A DNA stretch of 64,000 nt, from contig JBGPDI010000006.1 in assembly GCA_041482215.1 (NCBI GenBank), positions 1,591 through 65,590 of the forward strand, read 5' to 3'. The notes under the pieces are model-generated. The model searched no databases. It was not told the DNA's origin and saw only the letters and a program-made list of their open reading frames with translations. Origin of the DNA: Candidatus Acidiferrum sp. GTDB lineage: Bacteria; Acidobacteriota; Terriglobia; Acidiferrales; UBA7541. Both the position numbers and the translations under genes were made by a program. This document shows, piece after piece, positions 3,495 through 6,828 of the stretch; within the stretch, counting starts at the first letter, position 1; each line of letters starts with the position of its first letter.

Positions 3495-3566
3495 GGAAGG
3501 ATTCTCCTTTCGATCATTCTATACCTTTTCGCGGGTCAGTGCAGATGCCAGTGTGCTCTGAACAAT

Positions 3567-3632
3567 GTGAAATGGGTGATGAAGGGCGGGGCGGTGGTGG
3601 CGGACAAGACCAACGAACAAGTTCGCAAGTGA
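3567..3632 (+). pseudogene. Orphan 3'-terminal fragment (21 codons plus stop) of an amidohydrolase allele or paralog
   Basis: Encodes VKWVMKGGAVVADKTNEQVRK*, versus VKWVMKGGAVVADKTKEQVRK* at 1683-1748. There are 4 nt differences, 3 of them synonymous third-position changes. No upstream coding continuation. Confidence 0.85.
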
Positions 3633-3698
3633 AAAAACGAAGCCGATTTCAGGCTTTGTCAGTGCAGTGTATATGCCAAGCGCGTGCTAATTGGGCTT
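3567..3698 (+). repeat. Direct repeat copy B
   Basis: Matches 1683-1814 with 123 of 132 identical by hand alignment. It ends 1 nt short of the far edge of the stop codon of the convergent AlbA_2 gene (3697-3699). Confidence 0.9.
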
Positions 3699-5010
3699 AC
3701 AATCTGCGATGGAGTAATTTCTGAATGTAGGCCCGAAGTTGTTCAACGTCGGGATTCTCTAGATGAAAGCCTTTGAGCATGGCTCGTGTCAAATTCTCCG
3801 CAATATCTTCCACACCGGCTCTCCAATCTGCGAGAGTATGAATGCTCTTAACGGAGATTTCTGGCCGATTTGCTTCATACTGTGACCTGGACCAGCGCAT
3901 CTGATTGTTCCAGACCAGCCCCCTCCCTCGTGTTCCAAAGAGTGTGACGTCAAGAGTGATGACGTCAGAGTCGGTGAGCAATGATTCATACAGTCTACCG
4001 ATACAATGAGTCACCTCTGCGAAATAATACGCAATTCCGGGAACTGAGACGATTTTAGGTTCGCTTGCTGCGTTGTACATCAACTGTTTCTTGTAAAACA
4101 ACCCAGACTCGTTTAGTCGCCAAAAATCCAACATGTCTTCGTTCGAAAAGTCCGCTCCCGGAATGAGGGACTCGAAACCGTCATCAGTTTTCGACAAGTA
4201 GTCTGGGCGGTTGTGATGAATGAACAGAAAGGGCCAACCCCTGAAATCGACGTGAGCATTGTGAGCCGCCCGTTCAAGCTTTTCAGGTGGAAATCGATAA
4301 CGGTCAAATTCTTCCAGTGAGAAGATGGCCTCTGCGAAAAATGTGTAGTTCTTTTCTTTCAGGGGATTGCGAGTCTCAAACTCTATTTGCGCGGCTTTGA
4401 CCTGCGCGGAGAACTGTTCTTCAACAGATGGCATTCTCTTTACAGTGTTAGTTTCAGCGCCTGTAAGGATGGCGCGAAATGATGCGAGCATAGAATCTTT
4501 CCGATTTCGAATTGCTGATTCAATGAGCAATCGGAAGTCTGCTGACGACTTGATTGGTGCGGTCTCATTGTTGTCGGTGCGCACGTACAGCTCACGGTCT
4601 CGAAGTACGTCAGGGTAATCCTTTTGGCAAATATGAGGAGTGTCGAGAAACCGGGGTATTTCCAGCACTACAAATATGCAGTCCCTATGAGAGACCTTTT
4701 GTACACGAACGTTTATGGGCGGGTCCACATAGTTCTGAACAAATTGGCAAATGGCGGAAGACTCGTAGGTTTTCGCCTGCTCAGCAGTTACTCCGACGAG
4801 GTTAAATCCATGGCTCAGTTCGGAAACTCCGATGACGATGTACCCGCCCTCTGTATTTGACATCCCGATGATGTCTTTGACCAGTTCGCAGCGCATCTTT
4901 TTGTCATGCGAATCCCACATCACGGGGCCTTTGTAGTCTAGGCTTTTTGACTCAAAATTCCTTTCGATGATTGAGATTAACTCGACGCTCGCTGGGATGA
5001 TGTTTTCCAT
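3697..5010 (-). CDS. AlbA_2 (Schlafen-like, putative DNA-binding) domain protein with an unassigned C-terminal region of about 300 aa
   Basis: 437 aa. The N-terminus FESKSLDYKG...VKDIIGMSNTEGGYIVIGVSE matches the AlbA_2 pattern (E..lEfK ... aNteGG.l.iGv). I recognise nothing in the rest. The gene is visibly AT-rich: 43 G+C in 4021-4120 versus 58 in 15001-15100 by hand count. Confidence 0.7.
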   Translation of the reverse strand: MENIIPASVELISIIERNFESKSLDYKGPVMWDSHDKKMRCELVKDIIGMSNTEGGYIVIGVSELSHGFNLVGVTAEQAKTYESSAICQFVQNYVDPPINVRVQKVSHRDCIFVVLEIPRFLDTPHICQKDYPDVLRDRELYVRTDNNETAPIKSSADFRLLIESAIRNRKDSMLASFRAILTGAETNTVKRMPSVEEQFSAQVKAAQIEFETRNPLKEKNYTFFAEAIFSLEEFDRYRFPPEKLERAAHNAHVDFRGWPFLFIHHNRPDYLSKTDDGFESLIPGADFSNEDMLDFWRLNESGLFYKKQLMYNAASEPKIVSVPGIAYYFAEVTHCIGRLYESLLTDSDVITLDVTLFGTRGRGLVWNNQMRWSRSQYEANRPEISVKSIHTLADWRAGVEDIAENLTRAMLKGFHLENPDVEQLRAYIQKLLHRRL

Positions 5011-5236
5011 ACCGTTTCTTGGTCACCGCCAGTACGAATATACGCTTCTAGGCTGCTTCCGCCCACAGCGCGCCGAGCGGCTGGACACACACCAACCGCT
5101 GCGGGGCCCCATATGCCGATCTTGCGTGTGGGGCTTTTGACTTTTCCTGTCGCCGTCTTTTCCTTACTTCTTACGTCCTTACCTCACTACCTCGTTTCCG
5201 CATTCCTCCGCGGGCAGCGCATAGCTGCCTGTGCCA

Positions 5237-5968
5237 CTAGGATCCCTCCTTACTTCCATTTCCGTTCTTTCTTTGGACGGGAGTGGGGGGAATGAGCTTG
5301 CCGGCGGCTAGGTCATCGAGGGCACGGAGGCGGCTGGTGAGTTCGTGGGCGCTCAAGCGGCGGTCGCGGTAGAGCGAGCGTACAAACTCGACGGCGTGGC
5401 GCTCGGCCTTCAGCGAATTGCAATCCAGACAGCAGGAGACGAGGTTGCGGTAGGAATTGCTGCCGAGGCTGGCCTGCGGAACGACGTGGTCGAGGCACCG
5501 CCTCTCGCGGATGAGGCGGCGCAGACAATAGAAGCAGCGGCCGCCCTCGCGGGCGTGGATGGCGTGTCGGCGCGGCTGAATTTGGAGGAAGTCGATCTCC
5601 CCGAAGCCGGTTGCGCCTGAAGGTTGGACAGAGCCCTGGGCTGCGGCCTGGGCAGCACGCACAGCCTGGACTTCGCACGGCAGCCGGACACAAACGACGT
5701 GATGGGCCTGGCAACTGCGTTCGACCAAGCGCAATACGCCCCAAGCAATCAGGCGACGAACGGACTCACGAGCGGTACTCGGGGAGAGTCGAATGCGGGG
5801 GCCGAGCCAGGACATCGAAAAACGGATGCGGAGCTTGCCTACGAGGCGGCTGTGCCGGAGAAGATGGGAGTAGACGGCGCGGTCGATCACGGAAAAGTTC
5901 AGCCGGGGCGCGAGGCGGTCTTCAAAATCTTTCCAGACCTGTGCGGCGTCGATGGTTTTAGTTTTCAT
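5237..5968 (-). CDS. Winged-helix plus HNH endonuclease domain protein
   Basis: 243 aa. The C-terminal half has CFYCLRRLIRERRCLDHVVPQASLGSNSYRNLVSCCLDCNSLK, which is CxxC...DH...N...CxxCN, a canonical HNH motif. The N-terminal STARESVRRLIAWGVLRLVER looks like a wHTH recognition helix plus wing. Confidence 0.75.
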   Translation of the reverse strand: MKTKTIDAAQVWKDFEDRLAPRLNFSVIDRAVYSHLLRHSRLVGKLRIRFSMSWLGPRIRLSPSTARESVRRLIAWGVLRLVERSCQAHHVVCVRLPCEVQAVRAAQAAAQGSVQPSGATGFGEIDFLQIQPRRHAIHAREGGRCFYCLRRLIRERRCLDHVVPQASLGSNSYRNLVSCCLDCNSLKAERHAVEFVRSLYRDRRLSAHELTSRLRALDDLAAGKLIPPTPVQRKNGNGSKEGS

Positions 5969-6038
5969 AATTTTGGTCCTGAGAGGGAGGTTGATAAGTC
6001 GAGAGCTGACAGCTGACAGCGGAAGAAAAGGCAGAGCC

Positions 6039-6079
6039 TTAACACAGAGATCACAGAGACAAGAGCACAGAGGTCACGG
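6039..6079 (+). repeat. TTAACACAGAG / CACAGAG-type intergenic repeat, copy 1
   Basis: ttaacacagagatcacagagacaagagcacagaggtcacgg. A related copy starts with the same 11-mer at 23756. Confidence 0.7.
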
Positions 6080-6091
6080 ACAAACAAAAAC

Positions 6092-6113
6092 GCCGGCAGG
6101 ATGCCGGCGCTAC
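6092..6113. repeat. GCCGGC-hairpin repeat GCCGGCARGATGCCGGCGCTAC, copy 1
   Basis: gccggcaggatgccggcgctac, compared with gccggcaagatgccggcgctac at 20706-20727 (1 mismatch). Confidence 0.8.
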
Positions 6114-6221
6114 GAAATGAGAAAAGCAGAGACGTCTGCAGGAAGCCGACGTAAGACACGGGGGGTAGCGTGGCAAGCCCCGCCACTACAAGGGAAAGCG
6201 GCAGCAAGGCTGCCGCACTCC

Positions 6222-6253
6222 AAAAAAGAAAAAGCCCCGACTGGCATCGGGGC
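6222..6253 (-). terminator. Rho-independent terminator-like hairpin on the minus strand
   Basis: Minus strand reads GCCCCGA-tgccag-TCGGGGC followed by ctttttctttttt. A second perfect hairpin (GCGGCAG-ccttg-CTGCCGC, 6198-6216) follows. Confidence 0.55.
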
Positions 6254-6484
6254 GCACTCTTCTACACTCACTAATCTACCAAACTAGTAATCTCCTTGTC
6301 AAGTAAAACTGTGGTACCTTTAAGCTATTGAAGAGAGGCGGTTTAGCCTAGGATGAAACGTGGCGTCGTTCGTGGTGGACAAGACGAAACCGGTGGTAAG
6401 TCATTAGATGCTGTCTCACGAATGGTTCTGAGGACGTAAAGACTTTCCTCGGGGGCTAAAGCCCAAGGAAAGTGCGCTCTCTAT

Positions 6485-6504
6485 GTCGGAGCTAAAGCTC
6501 CGAC
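6485..6504. repeat. REP-like perfect hairpin GTCGGAGC-TAAA-GCTCCGAC
   Basis: 8-bp stem with a 4-nt loop. A related GGGC-TAAA-GCCC hairpin lies at 6453-6464. Confidence 0.6.
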
Positions 6505-6709
6505 CCCCTAAACTGCTATTGAGAGGCAATTTCTAGCAAACGGAAATAGAAACGGGCTAGAAGGCAAATGCGCCCGCCCTCCAGCCCGAGTGCCCAAGGA
6601 GAATCTGACACTACCGCTATGACTGGCCGATGGGCAGATTTATGCCGGGGGATCTGGAAAATCTAGAGACCAATGCCCGCGCAACCTGAGTCGTAAGTAG
6701 TGGCCTTAT

Positions 6710-6738
6710 TTGACGATGGTGGGGCGCGACGGTAGAAT
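6710..6738 (+). promoter_or_regulatory. Sigma-70-like promoter for the aldehyde dehydrogenase gene
   Basis: TTGACG (6710-6715), 17-nt spacer, TAGAAT (6733-6738). Predicts a 5' UTR of about 85 nt before the ATG at 6829. Confidence 0.5.
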
Positions 6739-6828
6739 TTAGCTTCCACGACGTAGTGTCTCGCGTGCAGACCCGCAGTGGACCGGACGAAAAGCTAAGC
6801 GGCAGGCTTGAGGGATTGAGGAGGAAGT

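Follow-up and report, generated by a model that had tools for sequence, protein, structure and literature searches.

Two adjacent genes in a 64-kb stretch of DNA from Candidatus Acidiferrum sp. (contig JBGPDI010000006.1 of assembly GCA_041482215.1; the whole stretch is called the window below) raise the question of whether a Schlafen-like gene and the HNH nuclease gene beside it work together as a defence pair, as the first-pass annotation of this DNA had proposed, or are neighbours by chance. We judge it probable that the Schlafen gene (gene 1) encodes a self-contained, horizontally acquired immune nuclease of the prokaryotic Schlafen (pSlfn) type, and that the winged helix-turn-helix (wHTH)-HNH gene (gene 2) is independent of it. 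The listing of open reading frames (ORFs) confirmed both genes on the minus strand, 226 nt apart, where they had been placed:

3697-5010, minus strand: gene 1, a 437-aa pSlfn protein, single-gene unit with an intact ORF
5011-5236, 226 nt: spacer, of which the HNH-proximal part (5103-5236) is the native 3' flank of the HNH gene and the other 92 nt belong to the gene 1 insert
5237-5968, minus strand: gene 2, a 243-aa wHTH-HNH nuclease, hotspot-edge resident outside the Schlafen unit (ORF and HNH Pfam families)

The Schlafen and HNH genes as neighbours

The proposed pairing was examined from both sides. On the gene 1 side, the dataset comprised 80 genome loci and 6 further look-ups, with about 30 relatives at full length and flanks of up to 10 kb; on the HNH side, it comprised 85 loci (473 kb) around gene 2 homologues at 57-91% identity. 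A tblastn search with gene 2 on the 80 loci around gene 1 relatives returned nothing, and the positive control with gene 1 worked. No HNH gene of the gene 2 family was found near about 40 gene 1 relatives, including the closest ones at 79, 69 and 66% identity. For the relative P0005 (71%) this applies to the downstream side, the sole side covered as the contig ends just upstream, and P0055 (45%) has no HNH gene in its context. Conversely, none of the 85 HNH loci contains a Schlafen gene. Since co-occurrence is absent in both directions, an outcome that the annotation itself had named as evidence against its proposal, we reject the pairing; the apparent pair is an accident of insertion.

Gene 1 has no other recurrent neighbour in the data, as clustering of neighbouring genes over 34 loci yielded no family present in more than three of them. 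Its relatives have a patchy, mobile distribution without synteny between them, and their contexts are mixed. The closest relative (P0002, 79% identical) adjoins integrase and primase genes, P0009 (66%) sits among HigB/HTH genes, transposase fragments and EAD5, and P0007 (69%) is found among metabolic genes. No phage match was obtained for gene 1, and plasmids gave only distant AlbA_2 matches.

The boundaries of the acquired segment are visible in the comparison with the 85 orthologous HNH loci, where homology is lost at about 5226 (in L157 at about 5103) and picked up again at about 3646. The insert junction thus falls inside the 226-nt spacer, and the sequence from 5236 to 5103 is 89% identical to L157, a locus without a Schlafen gene. 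Because the flanks are conserved in other loci and the insert is unique to the window, we conclude that gene 1 alone is carried by a window-specific segment:

3647-5102, about 1.5 kb: window-specific low-GC insert carrying gene 1 alone (homology breaks and G+C of 47.6%)

The G+C content of gene 1 (47.6%) is the minimum among all 1314-nt segments of the window (mean 55.9%, standard deviation 1.7). Gene 2 has 63.1% G+C, which leaves a gap of 15 points between the two genes. The annotation was therefore right that gene 1 is AT-richer than its surroundings and that gene 2 is GC-rich, although the hand-counted values that it gave for the former contrast (43 versus 58) were too extreme. The foreign origin that it proposed for gene 1 agrees with both the composition and the window-specific insert.

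The two domains of the Schlafen protein

The full-length AlphaFold (AF2) model of the gene 1 protein is confident (predicted local distance difference test, pLDDT, 86.8) and contains two domains, with values mostly above 85 in the N-terminal one. We distinguish the following features:

4501-5010, minus strand: N-terminal Schlafen nuclease domain (residues 1-170), predicted effector (Pfam, AF2, Foldseek, PDB profile)
4930-4953, minus strand: catalytic motif E20-x4-D25-x-K27 (ESKSLDYK), from invariance and the CbCash alignment
4438-4503, minus strand: flexible linker (residues 170-191), with pLDDT below 50 at residues 170-182 and 184-191 of the full-length model
3700-4437, minus strand: C-terminal alpha/beta domain of about 250 aa (residues 192-437), predicted sensor/regulatory module (structure model, fusions)

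The N-terminal domain matches Pfam SLFN_AlbA_2 (PF04326) at residues 20-149 (E 5.8e-15; 56.3 bits against a gathering cut-off of 25.3), which confirms the AlbA_2 N-terminus recognised in the annotation. We collected about 255 homologues that align over the full length, each of about 435 aa, and E20, D25 and K27 are invariant in the 32 family members that were aligned. In the Foldseek search, the N-domain was similar to SLFN14 (9uie, 9nyy), SLFN13 (5yd0), 3lmm and 2kyy (E 1e-5 to 2.5e-4, probability 0.97-1.0). The best PDB profile match is the CRISPR-associated Schlafen (Cash) protein CbCash (9ylu, E 1.4e-5), over the Schlafen domain only (chain residues 12-144), and its E17/D22/K24 pair residue for residue with E20/D25/K27 of gene 1. 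In CbCash these residues form the Mg2+-binding catalytic centre, and their mutation abolishes tRNA cleavage (PMC13462974). The gene 1 motif also agrees with Ex4(E/D)xK, the signature of 5,930 prokaryotic Schlafen nucleases, two of which protect E. coli against phages via trigger-dependent tRNA cleavage (PMC13056530). As the E-D-K motif of Schlafen tRNA nucleases is intact, the N-domain is predicted to be an active nuclease, the effector, rather than a protein that only binds nucleic acids, contrary to the sensor role that had been proposed for it. By homology, we predict that it cleaves tRNA endonucleolytically in a Mg2+-dependent manner.

The length of the protein matters for this prediction. 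The identical protein in NCBI (P0001) is called as 407 aa from M31, so that it lacks the catalytic motif; the missing residues 1-30 correspond to positions 4921-5010 of the window. The 437-aa start is backed by the family alignment and by the JGI call of the same protein (P0380, 437 aa).

The C-terminal domain, modelled alone, adopts an alpha/beta fold with high confidence (pLDDT 93.7, predicted template modelling score 0.90). Past about residue 195 of gene 1 there was no match in Pfam, NCBIfam, PADLOC or PHROGs, the PDB profile search gave no match for the domain, and Foldseek found no PDB or viral (BFVD) structure at E<=1e-3. The top structure hits are archaeal and viral TBP-like proteins, which are not significant (E 4.7e-3, template modelling (TM) score about 0.2) but have a compatible strand-helix order. 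No HATPase_c_4 or wHTH tail was detected in gene 1 by Pfam at E<=0.1. On both counts, namely a C-terminal region that resembles nothing recognised and the missing regulator tail, the annotation proved correct.

A phmmer search of 1.84 billion cluster representatives identified 141 carriers of the C-domain, most of them Schlafen fusions of 430-445 aa. Other architectures were found as well: in P0249 the domain follows TIR_2 (E 5.8e-34), in P0308 a P-loop domain of the ParA/CbiA type (E 1.2e-12), in P0373 a RelA/SpoT synthetase domain (RelA_SpoT; hhalign probability 97%, E 5e-11), and in P0339 (567 aa) an N-domain of no assigned family (probability 99%). No Pfam family matched the first 300 residues of P0339 or the N-termini of P0271, P0264, P0348 and P0375, and effector domains not yet recognised may lie there. 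Two proteins of about 260 aa (P0242, P0243) were considered as stand-alone C-domain proteins and set aside, since they start within linker sequence and are probably truncated gene calls.

Among the Schlafen fusions, conservation differs between the two parts of the protein: pairwise identity is 62% for the nuclease domain versus 41% for the C-domain, and the nuclease is the more conserved part in all 496 pairs. The phage-sensing domain of pSlfn5 shows the same asymmetry, its nuclease being more conserved than the sensor (PMC13056530). A domain that is swapped across outputs and evolves faster than its partner is what one would expect of a sensor or regulator, and on these architectural grounds the C-domain of gene 1 is likely a sensor or regulatory module. 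A stronger proposal is that it represents a previously undescribed portable infection-sensing module combined with at least four outputs (Schlafen RNase, TIR, RelA/SpoT synthetase, and ParA-like P-loop NTPase); we put this forward tentatively, at slightly less than even chances. CapRel-type proteins are fused toxSAS with a C-terminal phage-sensing domain. The RelA/SpoT fusion P0373 has the same effector-then-sensor order; the effector of gene 1 differs, and the likeness is one of domain order in P0373.

Comparison with known systems places gene 1 among the pSlfns. With the described members (pSlfn1-55; RorSlfn5, EcoSlfn7; PMC13056530) it shares the N-terminal PF04326 domain, the Ex4(E/D)xK motif, the single-gene design of a nuclease with a variable accessory domain, the stronger conservation of the nuclease relative to that domain, and the defence-island context. 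Thus gene 1 has all the pSlfn features that can be read from sequence, structure models and context: PF04326 above cut-off, motif, fold, fused accessory domain, and location among defence genes, the last being represented by an adjacent DUF433 toxin-antitoxin pair and by orthologous slots with Shedu, AbiU, OLD-like ATPases and PIN. It differs in its host, a soil lineage of Acidobacteria, in being known here from sequence, and in its C-domain, which is none of the pSlfn accessory domains Ig-like, DUF262, HisKinase or HTH. Gene 1 therefore falls in the 'unannotated fusion' class, which accounts for 17% of the surveyed pSlfns (PMC13056530). Given that bacterial Schlafen defence has already been reported in 2025-26 (PMC13056530, Nat Microbiol 2026; PMC13462974, Nat Commun 2026), the module is not undescribed in the sense that the annotation had suggested.

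Other assignments fit less well. CbCash (PMC13462974) shares the Schlafen domain and catalytic triad with gene 1, but it is fused to Csx15, which binds cA4, and its neighbours belong to type III CRISPR, whereas gene 1 is matched no further than residue 144 and its C-domain, which resembled no PDB entry, contains no Csx15. There was no cas gene among the neighbours examined (LprI-like, DUF433 pair, HNH, amidohydrolase, Aldedh), a result that comes from these genes and not from a dedicated cas search of the window. An AlbA_2 regulator of the DIP2311/3lmm type was rejected in view of the absent HATPase_c_4/winged-helix region and the TM score of 0.23-0.26 to 3lmm, which covers the N-domain only. 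The PADLOC family PDC-S50 was rejected as well, because the match covers only profile positions 8-157 of 387 (residues 10-160, E 2.1e-11). Gene 1 is thus a pSlfn and not a Cash protein, a DIP2311-type regulator or a PDC-S50 member. Shedu (SduA) follows the same design logic, a conserved nuclease and a variable sensor in one gene, but its nuclease has the PD-(D/E)xK fold, is DNA-directed and is unrelated to gene 1, with no sequence similarity.

The hotspot and the HNH gene at its edge

The site occupied by gene 1 is a slot of highly variable content. In the 4 kb downstream of the HNH gene, we counted 211 distinct ORF clusters in 55 loci, with nearly every locus different, and many slot ORFs in related Acidobacteria have no family match. 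Ten larger slot ORFs were sampled using PADLOC: four gave strong defence matches (L101/L102 2915-4036, L124 7390-9174, L106 1235-2560, and L109 966-2261), one gave a weak match (mad8, E 7e-4), and one is an IS110 transposase. The strong matches are Shedu SduA (E 7e-100), which occupies the orthologous slot in L101, AbiU/AIPR, and two OLD-like AAA_15/21 ATPases (NsnB, HEC-03B, AriA-like). PIN, DUF433/DUF5615, MazE-like, UPF0175/DUF3368 and Y1 transposase genes are found in the slot of other loci. In the window, the slot holds gene 1, then the DUF433 pair, and then an LprI-like gene. The annotation had described gene 1 as a plausible defence gene in a defence/toxin-antitoxin islet, and these data support it on both points.

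The LprI-like and DUF433 genes form a repeat-bounded cassette, as the annotation had noted, bracketed by a direct repeat of 135 nt:

1680-1814: repeat copy A, comprising the last ~70 nt of the amidohydrolase gene and its downstream flank
3564-3698: repeat copy B, 93% identical to copy A and abutting the stop codon of gene 1

A repeat copy beside the DUF433 cassette is kept in many related loci, the first 50 nt of the repeat are likewise duplicated in L083 (12031-12080 and 13263-13312), and a degenerate partial third copy (22-35 nt) lies at 6367-6388, upstream of the HNH gene. The amidohydrolase 3'-end repeats look like att-site duplications left by serial site-specific insertions; no integrase is present. 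At the opposite edge of the slot, the 3' end of the HNH gene is partly re-copied (26-168 nt, 72-96% identical) in the same orientation 0.35-2.2 kb downstream in 12 of 67 loci, where the copies bracket the first inserted cassette (L081 2785-2897, L082 4088-4144, L093, L094, L097, L139, L148 and others). The window has no such HNH 3'-end duplicate. Together, these patterns suggest that the HNH and amidohydrolase 3' ends serve as integration targets for cassettes. The C-terminal tails of the HNH proteins are mosaic among otherwise divergent homologues. With its conservation and the duplication of its 3' end at cassette boundaries, the HNH gene might, speculatively, be more than a passive integration target.

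The minus-strand gene at 1803-2867 encodes a protein of 354 aa. Its residues 82-177 form an LprI (lysozyme-inhibitor-like) domain, whereas the C-terminal half is unassigned and only weakly matches a PHROG of unknown function. The protein is 88% identical to proteins of L144, L145 and L097, where its order relative to the DUF433 pair differs, which indicates that cassettes are shuffled within the slot. A sequence of about 27 nt, starting 2 nt past the HNH stop codon, occurs in 5-6 copies in both orientations within the first 1.2 kb of L081 and L093, and in L081 it adjoins a Y1 (RAYT-like) transposase gene; this suggests repetitive extragenic palindromic (REP)-like elements.

The HNH gene itself belongs to the chromosomal backbone. 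About 3989 homologues were found, with tight conservation over the whole length, and the gene is in fixed synteny with aldehyde dehydrogenase-hrcA-grpE-dnaJ across the lineage. Upstream of it in the 85 loci are Aldedh (36 loci), HrcA (16) and GrpE (11), sometimes with an MFS transporter gene between; downstream, a variable stretch reaches up to the amidohydrolase, peptidoglycan (PG)-binding and trypsin-PDZ genes. The HNH gene is thus a vertically inherited syntenic resident that marks one edge of the hotspot.

The canonical HNH motif reported for gene 2 was confirmed by three Pfam families (HNH_5, HNH_4 and HNH; PF14279, PF13395 and PF01844), all above cut-offs at residues 145-198, and by the conservation of the catalytic and zinc residues C145/C148, D160-H161, N175, C180/C183 and N184 over 30 homologues. 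The winged helix that had been assigned to its N-terminus corresponds to a weak eS25-type match (residues 24-85, E ~0.005). Like McrA-type and other small HNH endonucleases, gene 2 has the ββα-Me HNH motif and a CxxC...CxxC zinc site, and several of its homologues are labelled 'McrA' by JGI; it differs in its unassigned N-terminal winged-helix-like domain and in its fixed synteny with hrcA-grpE-dnaJ, as opposed to mobile islands. The HNH domain is closest to the Cas9d/IscB type, over about 60 residues only, and an RNA-guided IscB/Cas9 nuclease was rejected because the 243-aa protein scores 28 bits against NCBIfam cut-offs of 175-375, over the HNH core only. A Septu PtuB or retron-type HNH effector was rejected on the grounds that the PtuB and PDC-M01B hits (PADLOC, E ~1e-5) are limited to the 60-residue core, and that the neighbours are Aldedh/MFS genes and variable cassettes, not a PtuA-type ATPase or a reverse transcriptase. 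On the phage side, there was one weak HNH match for gene 2.

Upstream of gene 2 lies an ORF-free region (5969-6828), also confirmed from the annotation, and the part of it next to the gene resembles a leader:

5969-6391, minus strand: non-coding HNH leader with a promoter-like site, tandem terminator-like hairpins and CTCTGTG repeats, outside the Schlafen unit

The promoter-like site (6302-6273) resembles a strong sigma70 promoter, with TTGACA, an 18-nt spacer with extended TG, and TAGATT. It is followed almost directly by a GC hairpin with a U-tract (6253-6224; hairpin at 6253-6234) and by two further terminator-like hairpins with T-runs (6216-6198 and 6111-6089), the latter of which is present in 1-3 copies elsewhere; CTCTGTG repeats lie between the hairpins and the HNH ATG. 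Leader blocks are kept in up to 45 of 58 other orthologous loci, and in some loci the first hairpin is swapped for a different hairpin with a T-run. The region has no Rfam family match. The leader could be an attenuator that silences a toxic nuclease, or a tiny small RNA. A decayed MFS gene, as found at this place in L083-L085, was rejected since tblastn gave no trace of it, and dispersed REP elements were rejected since each hairpin occurs only once in the window.

Alternative explanations and significance

The insert of about 1.5 kb brought gene 1 alone into a chromosomal hotspot, the slot of which is occupied in related Acidobacteria by different defence and toxin-antitoxin cassettes. If gene 1 is an independent immune nuclease, we envisage the following course of events by homology with characterised Schlafen proteins. 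At rest, the C-domain would keep the nuclease inactive, until a phage-derived cue engages it. The Schlafen domain would then cleave tRNA via E20/D25/K27 and Mg2+, probably after an oligomer rearrangement as in Cash and RorSlfn5, translation would stop, and phage yield would fall. We infer each of these steps, including the nature of the trigger and the protection from phages, from related proteins; the residues, folds, modularity, mobility and genomic context on which the scheme builds were observed. The wHTH-HNH gene would work independently of gene 1.

Several observations weigh against this explanation. Between the HNH gene and gene 1 we detected no terminator on the minus strand (a hairpin lies within the spacer at 5103-5137), and read-through co-transcription is possible in this particular genome. 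The relative P0018 (57% identical) is preceded, at a distance of 200 nt and on the same strand, by an HNH gene (L088, L089, 7163-7801). Some gene 1 relatives are located amid ordinary metabolic genes (L086, L090), and 30% of pSlfn genes lie away from known defence genes, with non-immune roles allowed for (PMC13056530). Finally, no ligand- or protein-binding precedent was recognisable for the C-domain, and the term sensor follows from the logic of its architecture alone. The first two observations, together with the common strand and the 226-nt distance, would suit a two-gene defence or abortive-infection system in which gene 1 is the sensor and the wHTH-HNH protein the effector. We nevertheless regard such a system as very improbable. 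The HNH neighbour in L088 belongs to a different family (a 212-aa McrA-like ScoMcrA_N-HNH protein with a different N-domain and BLASTP E>1), its similarity to gene 2 is limited to the motif, and it fits a defence-island setting better than specific pairing. Apart from the lack of co-occurrence on either side, the vertical inheritance of the HNH gene with Aldedh-hrcA-grpE, the insert junction inside the spacer, the difference in G+C, and the presence of a catalytic nuclease motif in gene 1 itself all speak against joint action.

The metabolic contexts and the pSlfns away from defence genes would also be compatible with a non-immune Schlafen/AlbA_2 protein, such as a nucleic-acid-binding regulator or RNA-processing factor, that has reached a variable region by chance; AlbA_2 proteins are often annotated as 'putative DNA-binding', and the best structural hit, 3lmm, is a regulator-like member. 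We consider this unlikely, given the invariant E-D-K triad, the lack of an HTH or HATPase_c_4 tail, a C-domain that also occurs behind TIR and RelA/SpoT, which are effector domains of immune type, the patchy and non-syntenic distribution of the relatives, and the presence of Shedu, AbiU and OLD-like ATPases in the same slot elsewhere. A chiefly selfish role, with gene 1 as an autoinhibited toxin or addiction element that stabilises the island, would be in keeping with the adjacent toxin-antitoxin pairs, a slot rich in such modules, and arrival as a single-gene mobile insert, but no antitoxin-like partner is conserved and the characterised single-gene pSlfns are phage-triggered defence systems (PMC13056530), which makes this role distinctly unlikely as the main one; addiction and defence are not mutually exclusive. 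Hardly credible is an inactive, decaying remnant of horizontal transfer. Such a remnant might be AT-rich and foreign, as gene 1 is, and the 407-aa NCBI call would point the same way; however, the 437-aa ORF is intact and matched by the JGI call, residues 1-30 align with the family including the invariant catalytic motif, and the full-length model is confident. An independent pSlfn immune nuclease remains the explanation that we favour.

This analysis removes a false lead, the Schlafen-HNH pair, and adds soil Acidobacteria to the hosts of the bacterial Schlafen immune nucleases, which have been recognised only recently. The new elements are modest: the definition of the hotspot, and the recognition of the C-domain as a module in its own right, which also occurs in TIR, RelA/SpoT and P-loop proteins. 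The former is a chromosomal site for defence and toxin-antitoxin cassettes between fixed flanks, delimited at one end by the wHTH-HNH gene and at the other by the amidohydrolase/PG-binding genes. It could be searched for additional systems in a phylum that has received little study, and may hold further unknown ones. The latter singles out one 'unannotated' Schlafen accessory domain as a discrete, well-folded and re-used module, and hence as a concrete candidate for the discovery of a new infection trigger. If the proposal of a portable C-domain is true, the domain would stand for a sensor family not described before, through which a new phage cue could come to light.

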